The notes under the pieces are model-generated. The model was given only the letters and a program-made list of their open reading frames with translations, did no database searches and was not told where the DNA came from. Below, piece by piece: positions 30,468 to 52,697 of a stretch of 52,697 nt of DNA. Location: positions 1 through 52,697 of IMG/VR virus record IMGVR_UViG_3300026097_001084; one strand, 5' to 3'. This DNA is from a virus. Lineage: Duplodnaviria > Caudoviricetes. The stretch's first letter is position 1. The number at the start of each line of letters is the position of its first letter. The position numbers and the translations under genes are program-made.

Positions 30468-31262
30468 TTACCAAAAATTTACTTTATTTTCTGATTCGAT
30501 AGTTTCATAGTGTTCTATCTTTGGTAAATAATCTTCTAAGTTCTTTGGATAAGGATAAACTTTGTGTTTCAATTTTGATTTCAACTTCTTAGTTTCTCCT
30601 TTAGTTTGACCTAATATCTGAATGTATCTATTCTTAGGTGCTTCTTTCTTTCTCCAAAATTCTTTATAACCATCTTTACCAACTGCCTCTTTTAGTTTTT
30701 CTATATTATGTGAACCCCACTTAGAAAATACAGTTCTTGAATGTATCCACTTATAAGGGTCTTTAGTTAATGATATACTAAAGTTTGGCATCAGTTGTAT
30801 TTGTGATGTATCTTGGAATAACCAATTTGTTGCTTGGTAAATTCCACCAAGATGTCCTTGCTCAGAATCAGAATAAGAAATCAACATCTTTATATTAGGT
30901 GCATTTTCTTTTAACCACTTAAAAGATTGTCCCATTGAGTATGATTCAATATTAGAACCATAACCATCGTGTATGAACAATCGTGTTAACTCTAAACACT
31001 CATCTTTGCCCAATCCATCAATTACCGAAGTTACTGCTGACCTACCCACTGGATATCCATAAATAAGACAACCTATGAGTTGTTCAGTATTACCCAATAC
31101 ATCTTCGGTATCGGTTTCGTAAAATATACCAAGTGCATACCTACACATTGAAAATGCGTGTGTATAATGATACTTTACAATCATATCCTTACCAGCTGCT
31201 TTACTGATTTCTCTGATTGTAATTTTGGATGTATCCACGTAATGTTTATTCTCCTCCTTCAA
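30468..31262 (-). CDS. Mom-like adenine modification enzyme (GNAT fold)
   Basis: IVKYHYTH, LELTRLF, LISYSDSEQGHLGGIYQATNW. Confidence 0.85.
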   Translation of the reverse strand: MKEENKHYVDTSKITIREISKAAGKDMIVKYHYTHAFSMCRYALGIFYETDTEDVLGNTEQLIGCLIYGYPVGRSAVTSVIDGLGKDECLELTRLFIHDGYGSNIESYSMGQSFKWLKENAPNIKMLISYSDSEQGHLGGIYQATNWLFQDTSQIQLMPNFSISLTKDPYKWIHSRTVFSKWGSHNIEKLKEAVGKDGYKEFWRKKEAPKNRYIQILGQTKGETKKLKSKLKHKVYPYPKNLEDYLPKIEHYETIESENKVNFW

Positions 31263-32007
31263 TTGGTTCTAATTTGCGAATTTCCATTTCTTCAATTTCA
31301 GTATTCTTTGAATATGGTAGTGATGGATGTTTTAAATTTTTCAATAACTTTCTTCTCTCACCACCCTTTGAAAGAATATAAACGTATCTATGCTTTCTTG
31401 GTTCTTTTCTAATCCAAAATGGCTTAGTTACCTGCTTCTGAATTTCTGTGGGGTTATTGGTACCATAGTATGGAAATATAGTTCTACCATGTTGCCACTC
31501 ACCATTTTCATCAAACTTAAATGACCAACTATCATTAAATCGTAAAGAGTTTCCTTGGTAAATCCAATTGGTTGCTTGATATATAGTTCCAGCGTGTCCT
31601 TCTTTCGGGTCTGAATATGATATCAATCCCTTCACTTGTGGTACATTTTCTCGTAACCAATCAAATGTCTTTCCTAAGAACCAACTTTCTATATTAGAAC
31701 CATACCCATCAAAAACAAATAATCTTACCAATTCCAAAACTTCGGTTCTATCTAACATTTCAGATATAGATTGTCCACTCAACCTACCAATTGGGTCACC
31801 ATAACATGCAACTCCAATTAATTTATCTTCAACACCACTAAAGAATGGGTGTTCTTCTATATCGGAAGTAAATAAACCAATAGCGTAAGAAACCTTTGTC
31901 CACAATCCACTATAATGATTATTGATAATGATATCTTTCGCTACCGATTTGTTTATAGCTCTTATTGATAATTTAGAAGTATCACAATATACCTTATCCT
32001 CTTTCAT
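31246..32007 (-). CDS. Mom-like adenine modification enzyme (GNAT fold), paralog
   Basis: IINNHYSG, LELVRLF, LISYSDPKEGHAGTIYQATNWIYQG, KHRYVY. Confidence 0.85.
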   Translation of the reverse strand: MKEDKVYCDTSKLSIRAINKSVAKDIIINNHYSGLWTKVSYAIGLFTSDIEEHPFFSGVEDKLIGVACYGDPIGRLSGQSISEMLDRTEVLELVRLFVFDGYGSNIESWFLGKTFDWLRENVPQVKGLISYSDPKEGHAGTIYQATNWIYQGNSLRFNDSWSFKFDENGEWQHGRTIFPYYGTNNPTEIQKQVTKPFWIRKEPRKHRYVYILSKGGERRKLLKNLKHPSLPYSKNTEIEEMEIRKLEPIEGGE

Positions 32008-37603: not shown

Positions 37604-38659
37604 TTAATCGGTAATAATATTTCCAAAGGTTGATTTTAACCAATCATTAATATCGCCGAAATTATTCACTACTTTGTATTTTAATAATATTTTCATGAAG
37701 TTCATTTTATTAATTGGTTTAATTGGTTCATTAAACCTATCCAATGCGTTCATTTTAACTATACCCGATATATCTACATTATCAAGTTGCATTAGTTCTC
37801 TATTTAAAAGAATTTGTTTTTTGGCTTCTATGATATCATTGTATATCTTAATCTTACCTTTGGTTTCTTCTTTCTTTTGTTCTGCTAATTGTAATAAATC
37901 ATCTACCGAAAGTTTAACATCTTCGGTAAGTTCTGGAAATCGTTTGATTACAGTCTTAATACCACACCCATAAACGCCAGGTATATTATCTGATTTATCA
38001 CCATCCAAAACTCTGTAAAGAAGTAAGTTTTTGGATTCGATACCAAATTCTTCCTTTACCACTTTTTTATTATACATCTTCTTTTTGGTAGGTGACCAGA
38101 CGATGGTTTTATCATCAACCAATTGTAAGAAATCCTTATCAGTTGACATAATCACCGCCTGTTCATCTTCCTTTAAGATGTTGGTGGTGATATAAGCCAT
38201 GATATCATCGGCTTCAACACCATCGTATATCATAGTTGTTAAAGGTAATCCATCCAACAGTTCGTTTAACCAAACGAACTGTCTTTTCATAGATTCTCTT
38301 TCATCCTCATCGTTCATCAAATCTGCATATTGTCTATTGACCCTAAGTTTATTTGAATCACGTTGGGCTTTATATCCACCAAACTTCTTTTTACGAGAGG
38401 TAGAACCTCCCTTACCATCGAACACTACAACAACACGAGTCGGTTGAGTTTGTCTGATTGCATACCCTATTGATTTTAACACACCGGTTACTCCACCAAC
38501 ATGGTCACCATCATCATTCATCGTTGGTATTGATGACCAACATCTGATAAAGGTATTTAACCCATCGATAATCAACACACGAGAATTCTTGTGTTTATCG
38601 ATATTATAGGTTCTTTCAGTTTTAACTGACTCTAAAATGTTCTTGTATAGTTCTTTCAT
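37604..38659 (-). CDS. 5'-3' exonuclease/flap endonuclease (T4 RNase H / PolI N-terminal-like)
   Basis: IIDGLN, VVFDG, YKAQR, EADD, STDKDFLQL, GDKSDNIPGVYGCGIKT. Confidence 0.95.
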   Translation of the reverse strand: MKELYKNILESVKTERTYNIDKHKNSRVLIIDGLNTFIRCWSSIPTMNDDGDHVGGVTGVLKSIGYAIRQTQPTRVVVVFDGKGGSTSRKKKFGGYKAQRDSNKLRVNRQYADLMNDEDERESMKRQFVWLNELLDGLPLTTMIYDGVEADDIMAYITTNILKEDEQAVIMSTDKDFLQLVDDKTIVWSPTKKKMYNKKVVKEEFGIESKNLLLYRVLDGDKSDNIPGVYGCGIKTVIKRFPELTEDVKLSVDDLLQLAEQKKEETKGKIKIYNDIIEAKKQILLNRELMQLDNVDISGIVKMNALDRFNEPIKPINKMNFMKILLKYKVVNNFGDINDWLKSTFGNIITD

Positions 38660-38720
38660 TATAACCTGTGTTTTTCTGTTGGGAAGTATTTATCTAATAC
38701 ATCAATCTGGTCTTGGTATT
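38619..38720. repeat. 102-bp direct repeat, copy 1
   Basis: Identical by eye to 38932..39033 (offset 313 bp). Confidence 0.92.
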
Positions 38721-38922
38721 GTTCGCGATGCCAGAGGTCATATTCAACACTAAACTCACCAACTGCTTTTTGAAATGGTATCACATCCTCATTACCACAA
38801 GAGTTATATTGCCAACATTCAGCTTCATTAATACCTTTACCAAACCATTCCCATGCTTGGAATTTCTCAGGATTGTTCTCTTTCCAATCCACTACTGCTT
38901 CTAGTGCTTGTGTGTAAGTCAT
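38659..38922 (-). CDS. hypothetical chimeric protein whose C-terminus is copied from the upstream gene
   Basis: Ends YQDQIDVLDKYFPTEKHRL, identical to the end of 38972..39190. Confidence 0.6.
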   Translation of the reverse strand: MTYTQALEAVVDWKENNPEKFQAWEWFGKGINEAECWQYNSCGNEDVIPFQKAVGEFSVEYDLWHREQYQDQIDVLDKYFPTEKHRL

Positions 38923-38931
38923 CTCTATTTG

Positions 38932-39033
38932 GTTTTAACTGACTCTAAAATGTTCTTGTATAGTTCTTTCATTATAACCTGTGTTTTTCTGTTGGGAAGT
39001 ATTTATCTAATACATCAATCTGGTCTTGGTATT
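38932..39033. repeat. 102-bp direct repeat, copy 2
   Basis: Identical to 38619..38720; contains a truncated copy of the exonuclease start (MKELYKNILESVKTK*). Confidence 0.92.
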
Positions 39034-39190
39034 TAGCGATGTGTTCTAATTCTAATTCGATTGCCTCGATTATATCAGAATGTTCACCAATACCAACTGA
39101 TTGATTTAAATACACCTCAACATTTGCCACATGTTTTGCAACGTGCCCTTCGGCATGTTTTTTCGTTGCCTCTAATAAAGTATTTCTCAT
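38972..39190 (-). CDS. small hypothetical phage protein
   Basis: KHVANVEVYLNQSVGIGEHSDIIEAI, a motif recalled from T4-like phage small proteins. Confidence 0.75.
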   Translation of the reverse strand: MRNTLLEATKKHAEGHVAKHVANVEVYLNQSVGIGEHSDIIEAIELELEHIAKYQDQIDVLDKYFPTEKHRL

Positions 39191-41862: not shown

Positions 41863-42525
41863 TTACATTAAAGTATTGATTATTTTTACTTCATAATCCG
41901 ATTTATGATAAAAATTACCTGAAAATGATATACGTTCTTCATCGGATGTGTAAAATGGATACACACAATGTCCTAAATTTGCTGGAAAAATTAATAAGGT
42001 ACCCTCCATGGTAGTATCACCTGGTATTATTTTCGTATCAACTTTACCTGGTGCAATATCATAAATAAATGCAAAGCTACCATTAGTTTTTAAGTTATCA
42101 TTTTTTCCTGGTCCTATTTTATCTTCATTTTCTTTCTTATATGGAATTTTATACCAGATAACAAATGAAAAATCTCCACTATGATGGTGTATTGGATTAT
42201 ATTCTAATTTCTTTTGAAAGTTTACCCAAGAATCTTCCCTAAATCTAAATTCAAAATTAGTATATGATTTTGGGGTTGTGTAAGTGGATTCTATATTAGT
42301 AATCTGAGGTTTATATTTTCTCAACGTATCAAACAAAAAATCTTTTATTTCTTGTGGATATTCTATATTATACTCATCATCTATTTGACCAGCTAGTTTA
42401 TGATTTAAATCTAACGATGAATCATCTCTATTTAATTTACTTAAAACATCACCCAACATCTCCATTTGAGATTCAGATAATTTTTCCATAATTGCCCAAT
42501 CGGTAGGCGATAATTGTTTTATCAT
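41863..42525 (-). CDS. 2OG-Fe(II) oxygenase
   Basis: WVNFQ...NPIHHHSG, IFPANLGHCVYP, RISFSGN; start set at ATG 42525 just after the upstream small ORF. Confidence 0.88.
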   Translation of the reverse strand: MIKQLSPTDWAIMEKLSESQMEMLGDVLSKLNRDDSSLDLNHKLAGQIDDEYNIEYPQEIKDFLFDTLRKYKPQITNIESTYTTPKSYTNFEFRFREDSWVNFQKKLEYNPIHHHSGDFSFVIWYKIPYKKENEDKIGPGKNDNLKTNGSFAFIYDIAPGKVDTKIIPGDTTMEGTLLIFPANLGHCVYPFYTSDEERISFSGNFYHKSDYEVKIINTLM

Positions 42526-42526
42526 A

Positions 42527-42661
42527 TTACTCTTCTTCAAAAATTGAATCTAAAGATTGTTGTAGTTTTTGGATTTTTAATTTGTCATCCACCGAAGGAG
42601 TTTTTATAGTCTTTAACTTTAAAAGTTCTTCTGTCATTTGTTTTAATTGGTCTGATAACAT
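42527..42661 (-). CDS. small hypothetical coiled-coil protein (44 aa)
   Basis: Manual translation MLSDQLKQMTEELLKLKTIKTPSVDDKLKIQKLQQSLDSIFEEE*. Confidence 0.55.
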   Translation of the reverse strand: MLSDQLKQMTEELLKLKTIKTPSVDDKLKIQKLQQSLDSIFEEE

Positions 42662-42672
42662 ATAGATAATTT

Positions 42673-43038
42673 TTAAATAAATGATTTCCAATTTTCTTCT
42701 TCGTTGAAAGCAGCTACTTCATATGGGTGGTCATTATAATTATAACCCATGTTATAATATCGTTTCATCCAAGAAGGAGATTGTAAGTAATGCTGATACT
42801 CGTGAACTAAGGTACGAATAAGGACTTCTAAGGAAGGAATGTTCTTCCAATATAAAGTTACCTCGTTCATCATAGAACAATACTCCCCATAGAGGTCTTT
42901 CGGTACTTCCTCATCAGAAAAGGGAGTATCTTCGATTGCAATATAAGGTGGGGTTTGATGATGTTTAGATTCACCATAGTGATTTATAACTTTGTTATAA
43001 ACATCTTCTGTAACTTGTTGAATTTCTTTACGGGTCAT
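42673..43038 (-). CDS. zincin-like metallopeptidase
   Basis: TLVHEYQHYLQ (HExxH) plus PYEVAA third ligand. Confidence 0.8.
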   Translation of the reverse strand: MTRKEIQQVTEDVYNKVINHYGESKHHQTPPYIAIEDTPFSDEEVPKDLYGEYCSMMNEVTLYWKNIPSLEVLIRTLVHEYQHYLQSPSWMKRYYNMGYNYNDHPYEVAAFNEEENWKSFI

Positions 43039-43099: not shown

Positions 43100-43131
43100 A
43101 AAAACCCATATAAATTATTACATGGGTTTTT
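43100..43131 (-). terminator. intrinsic terminator (possibly bidirectional) closing the halogenase/ATP-grasp unit
   Basis: Minus strand AAAAACCCATGTAA-TAAT-TTATATGGGTTTTT, 14-bp stem with one G-U. Confidence 0.85.
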
Positions 43132-43149
43132 GTTTGTATTTGTGTTTGA

Positions 43150-43287
43150 TTAAGATAAATGCTTTTCCTTAATTCTATCCACCACTTCAGCAAAAGCAGT
43201 ATTTAATTTTAAATTTAACTCAGCTGAAACTGGAGTTATTCTTGATTTAATTAATTCGTCTGTTCTACTTTCTCTTGTATTTTCCAT
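43150..43287 (-). CDS. small hypothetical protein (45 aa)
   Basis: Manual translation MENTRESRTDELIKSRITPVSAELNLKLNTAFAEVVDRIKEKHLS*, between the ATP-grasp-Hint gene and the terminator. Confidence 0.6.
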   Translation of the reverse strand: MENTRESRTDELIKSRITPVSAELNLKLNTAFAEVVDRIKEKHLS

Positions 43288-43307
43288 TATAATATACCTT
43301 TTTTAAA

Positions 43308-44813
43308 TTATTTTTGTCCACCACTACCAAATCCACATCCGATACATGAGGAATCACACCAATAGTTACCACATGCTGACCAAGAACACCCCGTACATAC
43401 GTTGTGCATGATAGTAAAATCATCATTATCAATATCAACTAAGAAATAATCGAATGGTTCAAAATCTAAGTTATAGATACTTTGATTTTCACTATATACA
43501 ATATCTAATGAAGTGATTTCTTTTTTAGAAAGTTCACCATTTGTTTTGTTGTATGTTAAAATTTTATCACCAACTACAAATTTATTAACCGCCTCAAAGT
43601 AAGTCATATCAGAACCAGAAGCCTCAATATAATACATACACGTGGCAGTATCTAACCATTTTTGACCAGTCTCTAATCCAACTTCAATCATAAGTACATC
43701 TGTTACCTGTGATTGTGTTGAAATCAATTCAGAGTTAACTTCTTGTAAAGATGAACTCGTAAAGTCAATGGAGCCATAGTGAGTTTCAAACTCTTCGGTT
43801 ATTTTAGAACCTGATTCAGGTCCACCTGCAATAAAATCAAAAGTTAGTGTTCTGATATTATCACCGATATTCAAATCAACTACATTACTAATTGTACCAT
43901 CTGCCATCAATATATCACTCTCAATATCCGTGTGATATGTCATTTTAATAGACCTTACAACATTTTTAGTAATATACTTTGCTCTTGTTTTGTTATTATA
44001 TTCTTTGGTAGCTTCCAAGAGTGTACTTGGTGTAAAATCCATATCAACTACACTTGATATTTTATATGCACCCAAATTAAGTATATCCAATGTAGAACCA
44101 AATATTACATCATAACTACGAATAGTTGAATAGTAATTATTAATAACATTAGCATCATCATAAATAAATTCTTGAAGTAAGTTATCTTGACTATCTAGTA
44201 ATTCTTTTTGAGTAGATACTTCTTCATCACTATTCACTTTAAATATCTTAGGTAATGAATTTAAATCATAGTTTGGATATCTACTTTTTTCCAATAAGTT
44301 AGGATGATTTCCTAAAGTATAATCAACATCAGATAATTCATCTAAAAATAACTCATCATCCGATGATGAAAAATATGTTTTAGGTATATGAGATGAACCA
44401 CTCATTAAACTAAAAAATTCAAATTTATCTGCGGTGTATAATGAATCTACAATTGCAGAAGTATCAAATGCTTGTCTTAAAATAAATTTATTATCAGAAT
44501 CTTCAATTACAGGAACTGTAATTGAATTTTTTGGAACTATATATTCGTTATATGAAATATTATTATCGTTACATAGTTGTTTCAATTTACTAACAACACT
44601 ATTTTCCGTTTTTCCAGATGGTGCAACTGATGTTAATTCAGTATATATGTAATGAAATTCGGTAATGTTATTTGATACCATAGTATCAAATAGTGGTTGA
44701 AAATTTAAATAATCTACACCATCATGATATATAGCAGTGTTAGTATTTATTTCTAATATTTTTACCGAATCCCCTTGTTCGAGGTAATCGGTTCCAATTA
44801 GTGTTCCTTTCAT
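43308..44813 (-). CDS. circularly permuted ATP-grasp-like domain + Hint (intein-like) domain + C-terminal Cys-rich peptide
   Basis: N-terminal GTDY...KILEINTN, DKFEF...IPKTY, LLEK, LLQEFI; Hint ILMADGT...DLNIGDNI, VGDKI, YNLDFEPFDYFLV...IMHN; then VCTGCSWSACGNYWCDSSCIGCGFGSGGQK. Confidence 0.75.
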   Translation of the reverse strand: MKGTLIGTDYLEQGDSVKILEINTNTAIYHDGVDYLNFQPLFDTMVSNNITEFHYIYTELTSVAPSGKTENSVVSKLKQLCNDNNISYNEYIVPKNSITVPVIEDSDNKFILRQAFDTSAIVDSLYTADKFEFFSLMSGSSHIPKTYFSSSDDELFLDELSDVDYTLGNHPNLLEKSRYPNYDLNSLPKIFKVNSDEEVSTQKELLDSQDNLLQEFIYDDANVINNYYSTIRSYDVIFGSTLDILNLGAYKISSVVDMDFTPSTLLEATKEYNNKTRAKYITKNVVRSIKMTYHTDIESDILMADGTISNVVDLNIGDNIRTLTFDFIAGGPESGSKITEEFETHYGSIDFTSSSLQEVNSELISTQSQVTDVLMIEVGLETGQKWLDTATCMYYIEASGSDMTYFEAVNKFVVGDKILTYNKTNGELSKKEITSLDIVYSENQSIYNLDFEPFDYFLVDIDNDDFTIMHNVCTGCSWSACGNYWCDSSCIGCGFGSGGQK

Positions 44814-44841
44814 ATCGTAAAAATTCCCTTTTTGTTATGTT

Positions 44842-44849
44842 TATAAATA
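44842..44849 (-). promoter_or_regulatory. TATTTATA element (putative phage late-type promoter)
   Basis: Recurrent motif upstream of 44813. Confidence 0.45.
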
Positions 44850-44858
44850 TATAGTTTC

Positions 44859-45146
44859 TTAAAATAAAGTACTTGTATTTTTTTTAGATGGGTTTAAACC
44901 ATGAGTTTTATCTATATTTTTCCATTTTTCTTTTGGACATGGGTTAGTTGCGGTTGAATATATTTTCTTTTTTAAAGGACACCCACATGCACCACATACC
45001 AAAGACCAATCTTTACTGGATATGGTTTCTCTCTTAAATTCACATTGTAAACAAACTTCAAATCTAGCATTTGCAAGAGATAATTGTTCATCCGTTGGAT
45101 TAATGGAACGAACCCATGAATTAAATATATCCTTTACATCTATCAT
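44859..45146 (-). CDS. small Cys-rich metal-binding protein (DUF6171-like)
   Basis: RFEVCLQCE...CGACGCPLKKK...CPKEKW. Confidence 0.7.
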   Translation of the reverse strand: MIDVKDIFNSWVRSINPTDEQLSLANARFEVCLQCEFKRETISSKDWSLVCGACGCPLKKKIYSTATNPCPKEKWKNIDKTHGLNPSKKNTSTLF

Positions 45147-45766
45147 ATTAGTATTTTCTTTTCAGAATATTCAGATAAGTTTATGGTTAAATTAGAACAA
45201 ACCGCAATTCTTTCTTCTTTTGAATGATGAATAAAGTTTGGTTTATGTAAATAAGTAGGATTAAAAAATAAAATATCACCAGTTCTTGGCAAAATGGATA
45301 CTTCTTCTCCGTTTTTATCTTTAAAAACCAATTTACCATCTTCACCATTTAAATCACTTGGTACATTTAAATAAACACAATAAGATATATCTGTTTTTAT
45401 ATTAGGAATTGGTACTGAATTAGATGTTGTTATTGTAATTAGATGATTATGAAATATTTCCGCTTCACCTAAATTTATATTAGTATTTCTATTAGAAGCA
45501 TATATCCAATGTTGTTCTACATAATTTGATAATGAATCAAATGTATGACCGAGAACTTGAATAGCTAAATCTCTACAATATGATTTTAATGAATTAATTT
45601 CCTTACTTTGAATTACAAAGTTACTTGTAGTAAAATCCGATAAAGAAGCATGTGATAGATTTTGCTTAACTCGATTTATCAGTATATCTTTTGGATATCT
45701 CCAATTGTATTGAGAACGATGTATTGTTATGTTATCGTTAAGTTTTATTTCTTCTATATTACTCAT
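45143..45766 (-). CDS. 2OG-Fe(II) oxygenase
   Basis: FHNH, YCVYLNVP, GKLVF, GDILFFNPTYLH, RIAVCSN. Confidence 0.85.
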   Translation of the reverse strand: MSNIEEIKLNDNITIHRSQYNWRYPKDILINRVKQNLSHASLSDFTTSNFVIQSKEINSLKSYCRDLAIQVLGHTFDSLSNYVEQHWIYASNRNTNINLGEAEIFHNHLITITTSNSVPIPNIKTDISYCVYLNVPSDLNGEDGKLVFKDKNGEEVSILPRTGDILFFNPTYLHKPNFIHHSKEERIAVCSNLTINLSEYSEKKILI

Positions 45767-45767
45767 A

Positions 45768-46991
45768 TTAAAATAATTGATTTTTTATTCTTTTAAAATT
45801 TCCCTTACTTAAAATCAGATAACTTGGAACCGAAAATACATTATCGATTACAGGTATTTCTAATATTTTTCTTAATTTATTTTCATCCAACACTTTCAAT
45901 CTATTATTAGAATCTAATAAATTCTGTAATTTAAGTGGTAAATCATGTGTTTTGTAATCTTGCCAAAATTTAGTATCGTTTCTATCACATACATAATGAT
46001 ATTTGATAAAGTTTAAAACTTGTTCATTTACATTTCTAATATGAGTGTTATAAAAATCCCTCTCATCATTTATCAATTGTTTACCATACAAAGCCTCTAA
46101 TTGAATTATAATTGTCATAATTGAAGTTGCCTCTAATGGTTCAAAGAACCCCCCACTTAATCCAATTGAAATACAATTTCCTTTCCACACTTCTTTAAAG
46201 TAACCAGATTCAAATGATATACGTTTTTTAAAATCAATTGATTTACCCAAGTATTCTTCAACTTCTTTTTTTGCATCATCATCTGATACATAATTTGAAT
46301 CAAATACATATCCACATCCCATTCTATCTTGTAATGGTATTCTCCACAACCACCCATATTTCATGGTTATTGCATCGGTTCGTGTATTTGAATTTGAAAA
46401 TAATGGAGTATCGTTTGGTAAATAAAATGGTAGTGCGGAATTAAGAGTAAGATATTGTTTAACTGATATCCATTCTGATTTCATTTGTTTATCCAATACT
46501 AAACGAGAAAACCCACTACAATCAAATATAAAATCAGTATCAACTACACCATTATCTTTTAAATATATTTGGTGAATATTTTCTCCTTTAAATTTAAAAT
46601 CAATAACATCATCTTGAATATAGTTTATACCACGTTCTTTAGCTATATTTTTAAAGTACTCACCCAATGTGTAGGTATCAAAGTGATATGCATAATTTGA
46701 ACTATTGGTGGTGTAGAAATCATGGTTAAAGAAATTATCATCTCCACACCAATTTTTAAAGTGAATACCCACTTTTCTAGTTGAATTAGTATTTTTCTGA
46801 AAATCTTGTTCGTTAATTCCCAATCTATCAAAAAATCTACGAATTACAGGAGTGGTTCCCTCACCAACACCTACAATTCCGACTGATTTACTTTCAACTA
46901 AAGTTACATTGGATTTAGAATGGAATTTGCTCAAAAATATAGCAGTTAACCAACCCGCGGTACCTCCTCCTATTATATAAATATTTTTCAT
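45768..46991 (-). CDS. flavin-dependent (tryptophan-type) halogenase
   Basis: GGGTAGW, GVGEGT, catalytic Lys position in RKVGIHF, FDCSGF, WLWRIP, FFEPLEATSI. Confidence 0.92.
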   Translation of the reverse strand: MKNIYIIGGGTAGWLTAIFLSKFHSKSNVTLVESKSVGIVGVGEGTTPVIRRFFDRLGINEQDFQKNTNSTRKVGIHFKNWCGDDNFFNHDFYTTNSSNYAYHFDTYTLGEYFKNIAKERGINYIQDDVIDFKFKGENIHQIYLKDNGVVDTDFIFDCSGFSRLVLDKQMKSEWISVKQYLTLNSALPFYLPNDTPLFSNSNTRTDAITMKYGWLWRIPLQDRMGCGYVFDSNYVSDDDAKKEVEEYLGKSIDFKKRISFESGYFKEVWKGNCISIGLSGGFFEPLEATSIMTIIIQLEALYGKQLINDERDFYNTHIRNVNEQVLNFIKYHYVCDRNDTKFWQDYKTHDLPLKLQNLLDSNNRLKVLDENKLRKILEIPVIDNVFSVPSYLILSKGNFKRIKNQLF

Positions 46992-46992
46992 A

Positions 46993-47601
46993 TTAAAATA
47001 ACCCTTTGGGGTTTGTCTTTATTACACTATTAAAGTTTACCACATATCTATCTTGTTGAGTTGGATAAGATGAATGATGAAAAATAGAACCATCAAATAC
47101 AACAACTCTACCTTTTTTTGGGGAACATGATTTTTTATGTTGAAACCTATGATATTCATTATTCTTTATATAATTCATCCATTGAAATGTATCGCCATTG
47201 ATTAAATCATAAAAATGAGTATCACCATCGGTATCATTTATATAATAGACAATAGATATATGCGGTTCATACCTATCAATATGCATTACTTTCTTATTAT
47301 CAAAGTTTTCAGGAGTATCTGAAACTCTTAACCAATTTACTTTATATCTGTAATTAGTTAAAATATCTGTATCTAATTTAGATAATGTATTATTTTGAAT
47401 TTCATTTATTAAATTATCAATACTATCATTACCAATGTTTTCAGGCCTTAGAACAGATTGTGGAGATTTTTCCGATGTTTTTAAATATTCTAAATTATTA
47501 CCATAATCCCACTTGAGATTGGTATTTTTTAAATACTTTTCTAAAAAATTTTGGTTATCTTTTGATATTATATCATCAAAAATATGAATACTATCTAACA
47601 T
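46993..47601 (-). CDS. 2OG-Fe(II) oxygenase
   Basis: MHID, VYYINDTDGDT, PKKGRVVVFDGSIFH, RYVVNFN. Confidence 0.88.
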   Translation of the reverse strand: MLDSIHIFDDIISKDNQNFLEKYLKNTNLKWDYGNNLEYLKTSEKSPQSVLRPENIGNDSIDNLINEIQNNTLSKLDTDILTNYRYKVNWLRVSDTPENFDNKKVMHIDRYEPHISIVYYINDTDGDTHFYDLINGDTFQWMNYIKNNEYHRFQHKKSCSPKKGRVVVFDGSIFHHSSYPTQQDRYVVNFNSVIKTNPKGLF

Positions 47602-47616
47602 ACAATATTATTTATA

Positions 47617-47624
47617 TATAAATA
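47617..47624 (-). promoter_or_regulatory. TATTTATA element (putative phage late-type promoter)
   Basis: Recurrent motif upstream of 47601. Confidence 0.4.
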
Positions 47625-47647
47625 TATAGATATTAAAAAGATTATAT

Positions 47648-51990: not shown

Positions 51991-52697
51991 TTAAATAATA
52001 TTATTTGGAAGTTTTATCAACTCATCTAATAAACTATTTCGTGTATTAACGGATTCTAAAAAACATTTCCTAATATACTCCAACCACTCTCTTAATTTAA
52101 ATTTTAAATCACTCCACTTTACATCATCATCCATCTGCTCTCGTAACCATGGAAATATATTTGTAATGTCATCATACTCAGGTAAAGGATATTCGGGAAC
52201 TTCATATCCAAGTAATTCAATAACTTTGTGTATTTTTTGAATAGTTCTATAATGTACATCTATAAAGAGTTTACCTGCTAAAACATGACATATAGTTTTT
52301 TCTGAGAAACACTGTACCATTGGATTTTCATGAATAAGATTTACTTCAGCTATACCAAACATCTTCCACATACCCTCTTCCATATTATTTGGCATCCACT
52401 CTCCACCAAAATCTTCTATGTTATAACCACGTTTATTTATTTTTTTTAAATTAGGTAGTTTTAAAAATTCATTATAATTATCTTCATACTGATGTTTCCA
52501 TATATAATGGTCGGATTCGGTAAAAGATGAGTAAGTAATTACTACATCATCTTCGTTCAATTCTTTTTTAATAGCCTTGGAAACATATAATTTAGAATCA
52601 TATATACGTCTTGCAGGATATAATAATTTAGAATCATACTCAGTTTTTAATTTTAACCAATCATAAAAAAAGTAATATTCACGAGTTGCTGTTGTAT
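51991..52697 (-). CDS. partial GT10-like hypothetical protein (5' end beyond window)
   Basis: Frame stays open upstream of the track's TTG to the edge; VNLIHE...FSEKTICHVLAGKLFI resembles the motif in 13904..14872. Confidence 0.65.
   Translation of the reverse strand, partial: TTATREYYFFYDWLKLKTEYDSKLLYPARRIYDSKLYVSKAIKKELNEDDVVITYSSFTESDHYIWKHQYEDNYNEFLKLPNLKKINKRGYNIEDFGGEWMPNNMEEGMWKMFGIAEVNLIHENPMVQCFSEKTICHVLAGKLFIDVHYRTIQKIHKVIELLGYEVPEYPLPEYDDITNIFPWLREQMDDDVKWSDLKFKLREWLEYIRKCFLESVNTRNSLLDELIKLPNNII

Follow-up and report, generated by a model that had tools for sequence, protein, structure and literature searches.

The 52,697-nucleotide stretch analysed here (positions 1 to 52,697 of the IMG/VR virus record IMGVR_UViG_3300026097_001084, Caudoviricetes; hereafter the window) was taken to be a contig of a T4-like phage. 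Its minus strand, which carries every gene between 41.8 and 47.6 kb, encodes a compact cluster comprising, in coding order, a 2-oxoglutarate (2OG)-Fe(II)-type oxygenase, a short flavin-dependent halogenase, a second predicted oxygenase, a small protein with six cysteines, a 501-residue fusion protein and a 45-residue open reading frame (ORF), which is the six-gene order that had been read from the bare sequence in an earlier annotation (hereafter the original prediction). The fusion protein, referred to below as the scaffold, combines an N-terminal ligase-like domain (N-domain), a Hint domain and a 30-residue Cys-rich tail, the latter being the proposed core peptide of a pathway resembling those that yield peptides made by ribosomes and modified after translation (RiPPs). 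The features of the locus are listed in Table 1.

A conserved viral cassette with a shared C-terminal tag

Homologs of the scaffold were confirmed at 202 viral loci, and the best 80 of these were kept for the comparison of gene neighbourhoods. Because many loci end at contig ends, a well-flanked subset was defined by the presence of at least 5 kb upstream and at least 2.5 kb downstream, which left 28 of the 62 distinct loci. Homologs of the 45-residue ORF were found in 78 of the 80 loci, of the six-Cys protein in 72 and of oxygenase 2 in 63, and each of these three families was represented in 27 of the 28 well-flanked loci. The halogenase had a homolog in 46 loci (22/28 well-flanked) and oxygenase 1 in 25 (12/28 well-flanked), with UvsX and the single-stranded DNA-binding protein reaching 5 loci each. 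Phage backbone genes were not conserved around the cassette and the backbone context varied, and the order and strand of the cassette genes were constant across loci whose scaffolds are only 42-58% identical. Co-occurrence in related phage genomes, the check set by the original prediction, was thus clearly passed over the 80 viral loci and the 28 well-flanked ones, and the cluster is a conserved module, not a chance neighbourhood. A plain functional linkage of the cassette genes is highly probable.

The enzymes of the cassette share a C-terminal motif, here called the tag, which consists of two hydrophobic terminal residues, usually after K, N, S or T (typically K-x-[S/T/N/K]-[LI]-[LIF], and in a more general form K-x-x-[LI]-[LIF]). 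Counted over distinct members, the tag was present in ten enzyme clusters at frequencies of 124/124, 62/62, 55/56, 55/55, 50/50, 41/41, 37/40, 17/17, 16/16 and 10/10, and was rare or absent in the scaffold (1/62), the 45-residue ORF (0/54), DUF2061 (0/20), the family c12 (0/19) and APS kinase (2/16). It is carried by the halogenase of the window and by 41/41 distinct cassette halogenases, as against 0/6 examined halogenases (464-530 residues) of cultured phages lacking the scaffold, namely those of HTVC008M, P-SSM2, S-H38, syn9 (two) and S-SCSM2R. Seven ORFs with a length of 60 residues or more lie between positions 41863 and 47601, and all of them but the scaffold (6/7) end in the tag, compared with 12 of 59 in the window overall (hypergeometric P 1.3e-4). 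The tag thus marks enzymes that would be expected to work on a macromolecule and is missing from those that make a cofactor. Judged from these C-termini, the shared tag ties the putative tailoring enzymes to the scaffold-bearing cassette.

Both the co-occurrence and the tag support the gene linkage put forward in the original prediction, while the bounds given there for the cluster have to be revised. The 3' limit had been placed at the terminator-like hairpin following the 45-residue ORF, but the island continues past it with two more tag-bearing genes, reaching position 41863.

Further tag-like C-termini were seen at two places. A 189-residue ORF at the edge of the window (51991-52560) ends in ...KLPNNII and shows a weak match to one member of the cassette family c14 (E 1.2e-4); it could represent one more tagged protein that lies beyond the island. 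In P-SSM2, a 196-residue neighbour of the untagged halogenase (L082:2327-2917) ends in ...NTPPLI, which may be chance.

In its usual form the cassette is larger, with more 2OG oxygenases (PF13640), members of two unnamed families, an SGNH-like protein, a protein with a weak radical-SAM match, an APS kinase and a DUF2061 protein, and the window thus holds a reduced version. The APS kinase (PF01583), an unnamed 126-residue protein and DUF2061 were found, untagged and upstream of the cassette, in 14-16 of 28 loci (L005, L006, L019, L021 and others). Their association with the cassette hints at a sulfated product in those phages; the sulfotransferase-like candidates, families c4 and c5, had no Pfam match and carry that label as a guess from a P-loop-like motif.

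Table 1 Features of the cassette region in the window, with the scaffold and halogenase of the related locus L132 for comparison. Tag, C-terminus with the shared motif.
Feature	Position	Strand	Remarks
Second exact 13-mer copy, 5' of oxygenase 1	47617-47629	-	followed by TATAAATA (47616-47609), 7 nt before ATG
Oxygenase 1, 202 aa	46993-47601	-	2OG-Fe(II)-type; end ...PKGLF (tag)
Short flavin-dependent halogenase, 407 aa	45768-46991	-	PF04820; end ...KNQLF (tag)
Oxygenase 2, 207 aa	45143-45766	-	weak 2OG-Fe(II) match, HxH...H...R; end ...KKILI (tag)
Six-Cys protein, 95 aa	44859-45146	-	CxxC...CxxCGC...C; floppy tail, end ...TSTLF (tag)
Promoter-like element CTATATATTTATA	44842-44854	-	28 nt 5' of the scaffold start codon
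Scaffold (501-aa fusion)	43308-44813	-	end ...GSGGQK, untagged
Scaffold residues 1-290, ligase-like N-domain	43944-44813	-	putative GspS/YjfC-type ATP-grasp fold (partial Foldseek match)
Scaffold residues ~295-471, Hint domain	43401-43931	-	ends in invariant His470-Asn471 (Foldseek and conservation)
Scaffold residues 472-501, 30-residue tail VCTGCSWSACGNYWCDSSCIGCGFGSGGQK	43311-43400	-	proposed core peptide; disordered, Cys-rich
45-aa ORF directly 3' of the scaffold	43150-43287	-	conserved, untagged; end ...KEKHLS
Terminator-like hairpin, then U-run	43100-43131	-	folding free energy (dG) -16.1 kcal/mol, z -5.7
HExxH protein, 121 aa	42673-43038	-	possible island member; end ...WKSFI (tag-like)
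54-aa ORF	42527-42691	-	end ...SIFEEE
Oxygenase 3, 225 aa	41863-42540	-	2OG-Fe(II), PF13759; end ...INTLM (tag)
Scaffold of locus L132	L132:8001-9827		
Halogenase of locus L132	L132:14271-15497		

The scaffold protein and its relatives

The scaffold was modelled by AlphaFold2 with 106 sequences, giving a predicted local distance difference test score (pLDDT) of 86 and a predicted template modelling score (pTM) of 0.81; residues 475-501 of the tail had a pLDDT below 50 and were predicted to be disordered. The N-domain was matched by Foldseek, with a probability of 1.00, to YjfC (7uk6, E 1.6e-6), GspS (2io8, 5.8e-5) and YgiC (7uk8, 1e-4). One of 20 members of the N-domain family matches RimK (E 0.089), and eight residues (E21, N23, R113, K130, K176, Q214, E215 and R232) were invariant in 34 sequences. 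A profile search of 1.84 billion proteins with the N-domain returned 318 representative clusters; among the best 150 listed, the match begins at residue 1 of the protein in 136. Homologs of the scaffold are encoded on viral contigs of up to 333 kb, and a search of the genomes of 185,579 species gave 1 partial match only. No match to the scaffold was found by tblastn in 50,697 phage records, and a profile search of the PDB gave nothing meaningful for the scaffold (best E 0.77, nanobodies) or for its Hint domain (best E 1.1).

The Hint domain was compared to known structures, of which Foldseek matched inteins, Hedgehog (6tyy) and the bacterial intein-like (BIL) domains BIL2 (6y75) and BIL (2lwy), the last three with E values of 1.7e-7 to 1.4e-6. 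Template modelling (TM) scores of 0.75-0.78 on the target (6tyy, 6y75 and 2lwy) identify the domain as having a Hint fold, and the C-terminal His-Asn pair (H470, N471) was invariant in the 106 sequences. The N-terminal Cys/Ser nucleophile and the Thr-x-x-His of block B were both missing: in the stretch that separates H294 from H470, none of the Cys, Ser and His residues was invariant in the 106 sequences, and the candidate first position of the Hint varies between T, V and S. With neither a conserved N-terminal nucleophile nor a block-B His, only cleavage at the C-terminus of the Hint domain itself appears plausible.

Five cysteines of the tail (C473, C476, C481, C490 and C493) were invariant in the same 106 sequences, and C486 was neither invariant nor near-invariant. 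Six cysteines were found in 55 of 60 related tails and eight in the remaining 5, and Trp was present in all 60; the tail of the window contains both Trp and Tyr. The tail sequence is hypervariable among relatives, with fixed Cys spacing. A canonical Hint domain (Cys start, His-Asn end) comes after the tail in some relatives, and its place is taken in others by a module entered between GK and SERHLK, which we take to resemble the self-cleaving chaperone domain S74; cleavage at this junction would leave the same ...GK end as the ...GGQK stop in the window. These putative self-cleaving modules after the tail are the best sequence evidence for its excision as a peptide. Some of the long forms match PF07591 (Pretoxin-HINT), and this match corresponds to the second Hint, not to the domain before the tail.

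A sister clade, examined at 84 loci and comprising more distant N-domain members, encodes scaffolds of 600-900 residues in which the first Hint is followed by one to three canonical Hints with linkers of 0-12 residues (none, AP, SP, DP, RF, RY, KF, FKYGGGF, LGISGS or RMPPGGVPQT). Most of these scaffolds end in ...VHNK (L092-L171; e.g. L092, L097, L100, L107, L121 and L155). With one flanking Hint freeing an amine and another making a thioester, the short linkers of the sister clade could yield cyclic dipeptides or small cyclic peptides. A Lys occurs within the last three residues of the scaffold in 56 of 60 proteins of the main clade and in 47 of 56 of the sister clade, compared with 131 of 575 neighbouring proteins, and this terminal Lys might supply the amine for the ligase-like domain. 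In the scaffold of the window, the terminal Lys region lies at 43311-43316.

The neighbours of the sister-clade scaffolds are still tagged, with frequencies of 141/153, 33/40, 31/32, 23/24 and 11/11 distinct members in five clusters. They include 2OG oxygenases, radical-SAM-like proteins, DUF6734 and a carbamoyltransferase family, the last being tagged in 5 of 17 distinct members. The 45-residue ORF was found in 0/84 loci, the six-Cys protein in 17/84 and the halogenase in 1/84. The scaffold of this sole halogenase-bearing locus, L132, reads ...THN-W-CFPAGT, so that its whole cargo is one Trp between two Hints, and its halogenase (408 residues, end ...NTTLI) lies inside a run of tagged genes. 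A per-locus comparison within the main clade found tail Trp to be independent of the halogenase; since every main-clade tail has Trp, including those of 6 halogenase-free loci, the comparison is uninformative there. At the level of the clades, the presence of the halogenase follows aromatic cargo, which amounts to about two independent contrasts and is not a statistic. Two results speak indirectly for a halogenase that would act on the aromatic residues of the tail: Trp is present in 60/60 tails, and in the sister clade, with its tiny non-aromatic cargo, the halogenase is found at 1/84 loci, the one with a lone Trp as cargo.

Putative tailoring enzymes, small proteins and regulatory elements

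The assignment of the halogenase in the original prediction was borne out by a match to PF04820 (E 3e-96, 323 bits, curated cutoff 21) and to PHROG 2928 (6e-101). Its best PDB matches were Trp halogenases (6e-66), and it also matched VirX1 (6qgm, 1e-46). Residues 1-93 and 95-359 align to residues 3-96 and 162-433, respectively, of a 516-residue Trp halogenase, and about 65 internal and about 80 C-terminal residues present in the aligned enzymes are lacking. The flavin-binding GGGTAG (GxGxxG), WLWRIP (WxWxIP), an aligned Lys and EPLE are kept; the Lys of TRKVGIHF aligns with that of TYKLAIRF, and FFEPLEAT with FVEPLEST (8fov, 5lv9). The aligned Lys and Glu correspond to the catalytic Lys and the conserved Glu of the family. 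In the alignment to the 516-residue enzyme, the module for binding free tryptophan was incomplete. Part of the missing sequence presumably forms the small-substrate pocket in the Trp halogenase structures, and its loss would suit a large substrate. As judged by alignment, the window enzyme is thus a member of the family belonging to a shortened subtype, in keeping with the 404-432 residues of the cassette halogenases. Like VirX1 and the flavin-dependent halogenases of cyanophages, it is a viral member of this family, but VirX1 has 531 residues compared to its 407 and the window enzyme lacks the internal segment and the C-terminal part. In the review PMC8407142, the catalytic Lys is K79, the active site of VirX1 is described as large and accessible, and the table lists no natural product for VirX1.

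The two oxygenases named in the original prediction both scored below the Pfam cutoff, and other evidence supports them to different degrees. Oxygenase 1 reached 26 bits for PF13640 (cutoff 27) and 4e-25 for PHROG 274, and its relatives (n=18) share an invariant H107-x-D109...H175...R185, corresponding to the iron triad and the basic residue of 2OG oxygenases. Oxygenase 2 reached 22.5 bits for PF13640 (cutoff 27), and 18 of 35 relatives match this family at E <= 1e-3. Its family has an invariant H106-x-H108...H174...R186 in place of the usual His-x-Asp/Glu...His, so that the acidic ligand is not evident, and the HxH motif may form an atypical metal site. Profile searches of the PDB returned only spurious repeat-protein matches for oxygenase 2 and one match, at E 0.98, for oxygenase 1. 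Oxygenase 3, encoded beyond the hairpin, matches PF13759 (2e-9, 38 bits, above the cutoff of 27) and PHROG 81 (2e-24), and at locus L002 a homolog of it (E 9e-124) that ends in ...INTLI directly follows the 45-residue ORF.

Six cysteines of the six-Cys protein (C32, C35, C51, C54, C56 and C70) were invariant in 44 sequences. Its AlphaFold2 model (pLDDT 76) comprises two helices and a hairpin, with the last 10 residues at low confidence, and a fold search gave no PDB match at E <= 0.001. In the Atlas clusters nearest to it, the few members with a taxon record are 100% viral. A complex prediction of the six-Cys protein with the scaffold scored 0.07 against a mark of 0.32 and speaks neither way. 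The 45-residue ORF has the conserved pattern ..ERP..IK....P.S...K.K.A.AF..VV..IK.KHL. The HExxH motif was kept in 5/5 homologs found of the HExxH protein; three of these (identical copies) end in ...KLFI and sit after the 45-residue ORF, and the other two are distant and untagged.

The repeated elements reported in the original prediction are present: TATTTATA occurs on the coding strand at 47624-47617 and 44849-44842, in both cases within the exact 13-mer CTATATATTTATA. ATATTTAT precedes the scaffold ATG at 45 of the 55 distinct related loci; the distance is mostly 18-34 nt, with three occurrences further out. Before other genes it was found at oxygenase 2 in 0/47, the halogenase in 0/31, family c4 in 0/56 and the six-Cys protein in 10/50, a comparison that is not entirely fair since most cassette genes overlap their upstream neighbour. 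Comparative support for the copy at 47617-47629 was not obtained. A T4-type late promoter (TATAAATA) was considered and rejected, as the conserved scaffold element reads ATATTTATA instead and TATAAATA is not enriched: its count in the window is 11 where 12.7 would be expected, and the 13-mer, when mismatches are allowed, is likewise not above chance. One coding-strand copy of TATAAATA does lie shortly before the start of oxygenase 1 (Table 1). None of 200 shuffles was as stable as the hairpin at 43131-43100. A terminator after the 45-residue ORF was not conserved at other loci, the median minimum free energy being -11.0 compared to -10.6 for shuffles.

Genes surrounding the island match the families of UvsX-like recombinase, single-stranded DNA-binding protein, DnaB-like helicase and DNA polymerase. 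At the DNA level, the sole relative among the 50,697 phage records was a 102-base stretch in the halogenase gene of the pelagiphage HTVC008M (Kyanoviridae). The assembly available for this phage has the same extent as the window, and among sequencing runs one DNA run, which may be the source, and no RNA run was listed as containing it. Elsewhere in the window, two adjacent ORFs of 87 and 72 residues (38659-38922 and 38972-39190) share their last 12 residues, LDKYFPTEKHRL, which looks like a local duplication. Two further pairs of adjacent ORFs are of near-equal size with similar N-termini and are likely tandem paralogs, namely 767-1660 and 1662-2552 (MRIVVSIFTLPH and MKIVITSFVMPH) and 30468-31262 and 31246-32007 (MKEENKHYVDTS and MKEDKVYCDTSK).

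Possible function and alternatives

The cluster may be read as the tailoring part of a RiPP-like pathway confined to viruses, in which the 30-residue Cys-, Trp- and Tyr-rich tail of the scaffold would be the substrate. Sequence and fold show this tail to be made as the C-terminal end of a protein composed of the ligase-like and Hint domains, to which the tag would bring the halogenase, two or three 2OG-type oxygenases and the six-Cys protein. Of the phage genes, only that of the scaffold is found throughout with the tagged enzymes; the tag receptor, if phage-encoded, would be the scaffold, and by elimination its N-domain, whose structural relatives bind peptide C-termini, is the likeliest receptor. 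YgiC and YjfC are described, in the passage of PMC12568646 that cites Pederick et al. 2023, as peptidylpolyamine synthetases in which the C-terminal carboxylate of a peptide is bound and joined to an amine. The recruited enzymes would then halogenate Trp and Tyr and oxidise other residues of the tethered tail, hydroxylation of Asp and Asn being a guess, and the Hint domain would cut at its own C-terminus by Asn cyclisation to free the modified peptide, as suggested by its conserved residues and by the second self-cleaving module of relatives. One amide bond is probably formed in addition by the ligase-like domain at the expense of ATP, and the promoter-like element before the scaffold gene could provide scaffold in excess over the enzymes. 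The full chain, from modification of the tethered tail by tagged enzymes to its release by the Hint, is in our view moderately probable.

Several observations weigh against such a pathway. On the side of the scaffold, the fold match of the N-domain is partial (TM 0.27-0.29 on the query and 0.36 on the target), and neither the N-domain nor the Hint matches a Pfam family. The residue after the Hint Asn is not Cys, Ser or Thr, and Asn cyclisation without a +1 nucleophile is putative here. On the side of the enzymes, 2OG oxygenases are frequent in marine phages and present there in several copies, with four annotated within 12 kb of HTVC008M, and their adjacency is by itself weak evidence. No halogenase is encoded in 6 of the 28 well-flanked loci though their tails contain Trp, so that halogenation would be optional. 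Beyond the main clade, the link between Trp and halogenase rests on one locus, L132: no halogenase was found in the available DNA of L169, which has a W-containing linker, or of L088 and L089, which have W-rich long tails. Finally, sister-clade cargo can be as short as 0-2 residues while many tagged enzymes stay, and with a near-empty cargo the target of these enzymes may be a different one, brought into order by the scaffold.

This last point leads to the strongest alternative, in which the scaffold organises or catalyses a pathway acting on another substrate, be it a polyamine conjugate, some small molecule or a component of the host or the virion. The tag would then assemble or co-localise the enzymes, and the Cys-rich tail would be an appendage for metal binding or regulation and not a core peptide. 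The retention of many tagged enzymes beside sister-clade cargo of only 0-12 residues fits it, as do the catalytic-looking residues of the N-domain, which are invariant in both clades, and the structural relatives of this domain, which ligate peptides to polyamines. The APS kinase and carbamoyltransferase of related loci are typical of small-molecule or glycan chemistry, and a CxxC...CxxC spacing can bind metal. A hypervariable tail with fixed Cys spacing and self-cleaving flanks on one or both sides nevertheless fits a released product better, the enzymes without tags are exactly the cofactor-making ones, and the presence of the halogenase tracks aromatic cargo; we consider this alternative rather unlikely, both for the scaffold acting on another substrate and for the roles it gives to tag and tail.

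A polymorphic-toxin-like module, in which the Hint would free a small Cys-rich toxin in the manner of pretoxin-Hint domains, the 45-residue ORF would be its immunity protein or antidote and the enzymes would be travelling auxiliary metabolic genes, could account for the position of that ORF directly after the scaffold in 78/80 loci, for the variation of the tail between relatives and for the PF07591 matches of some long forms. Immunity proteins normally co-vary with their toxins, whereas the 45-residue ORF is highly conserved while the tails vary, and it is absent from all 84 sister-clade loci; moreover, the Pretoxin-HINT matches concern the second Hint of the long forms and not the domain before the tail, and passive co-travel leaves the shared enzyme tag unexplained. 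A toxin module is therefore improbable. Chance adjacency, with a hyperplastic region of a T4-like phage having gathered common auxiliary genes, would agree with the varying backbone context and with the co-occurrence of halogenases and 2OG oxygenases in HTVC008M, P-SSM2 and others that lack the scaffold. It is already contradicted by order and strand recurring with scaffolds only 42-58% identical on contigs of up to 333 kb, by the tag statistics and by the counts in the well-flanked loci, and we regard it as hardly credible.

Known systems resemble the proposed scaffold-borne, self-releasing peptide pathway in part. The closest known kind is a RiPP cluster, with which the cassette shares a ribosomal, hypervariable, Cys-rich C-terminal segment beside a halogenase, oxygenases and, in relatives, radical-SAM-like proteins in fixed order, i.e. 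a variable core next to conserved tailoring genes, and a precursor gene with its own promoter-like element. It stands apart from RiPP clusters by its protein-sized, predicted self-cleaving carrier, its enzyme-borne tag and its viral-only distribution: the 'leader' is a 470-residue two-domain protein and not a short peptide, release would occur by a built-in Hint and not by a separate protease, recognition is apparently reversed, with a common tag on the enzymes in place of a leader read by them, and the cassette is found almost only on viral contigs. No RiPP-recognition-element family was detected in any cluster protein by Pfam and PHROG profile scans. Type-A BIL and Hedgehog Hint domains (2lwy, 6y75 and 1at0/6tyy) share the fold and the terminal His-Asn with the window domain, and cleavage rather than splicing would be expected of it; the latter differs from them in lacking the conserved N-terminal Cys/Ser, the block-B His and any sequence-level match, and in lying behind a ligase-like domain and before a short cargo. 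GspS and YgiC/YjfC are the best fold matches outside the Hint, but there is no sequence-family match, the structural overlap is partial and the window domain is fused to a Hint and cargo.

A further analogy is offered by the scaffold-peptide ('pearlin') pathways, e.g. that of ammosamide, in which an amino acid is built on a carrier and then cut off, and by conotoxins, which bear bromo-Trp, hydroxy-Pro and sulfo-Tyr. Decoration of a tethered substrate followed by cutting would be common to the former, and halogenation, hydroxylation and, in relatives, possible sulfation of a six-Cys peptide would recall the latter; the differences are that no tRNA-dependent ligase is present, that the carrier is a self-cleaving protein and that the context is viral. 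No description of the system was found in the portions of the literature consulted on Hint domains, halogenases, ATP-grasp enzymes and RiPP precursors in phages.

A wider reading would credit large phages with a general platform, confined to viruses, on which modified amino acids and peptides are made. It would be built from a ligase-like domain and a crippled Hint, with short C-terminal cargo, exchangeable enzymes with unrelated folds plugged in by their tags, and release by self-cleaving modules at one or both sides. We put this forward tentatively, as conceivable but less probable than not; the same reserve applies to the way the tag would work within such a platform, by docking non-covalently or by ligation of its carboxylate to the conserved terminal Lys of the scaffold. 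If the platform exists, viral flavin halogenases would gain their missing native substrate, a scaffold-tethered Trp, and the tandem-Hint relatives (with AP, RF or one W as linkers) would offer a ribosomal route to cyclic dipeptides, cyclic peptides or modified amino acids.

For the phages themselves, the cluster names a concrete candidate substrate for phage halogenases, which, VirX1 included, are not known to have a natural substrate (PMC8407142). It also suggests a new mode of recruiting tailoring enzymes, by a tag shared among the enzymes instead of a leader on the substrate. The Hint domain would free the product without a protease, and the combination of tag and built-in release would be useful for peptide engineering. 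The 318 clusters among 1.84 billion proteins, nearly viral-only, point to a sizeable and unstudied viral secondary metabolism.

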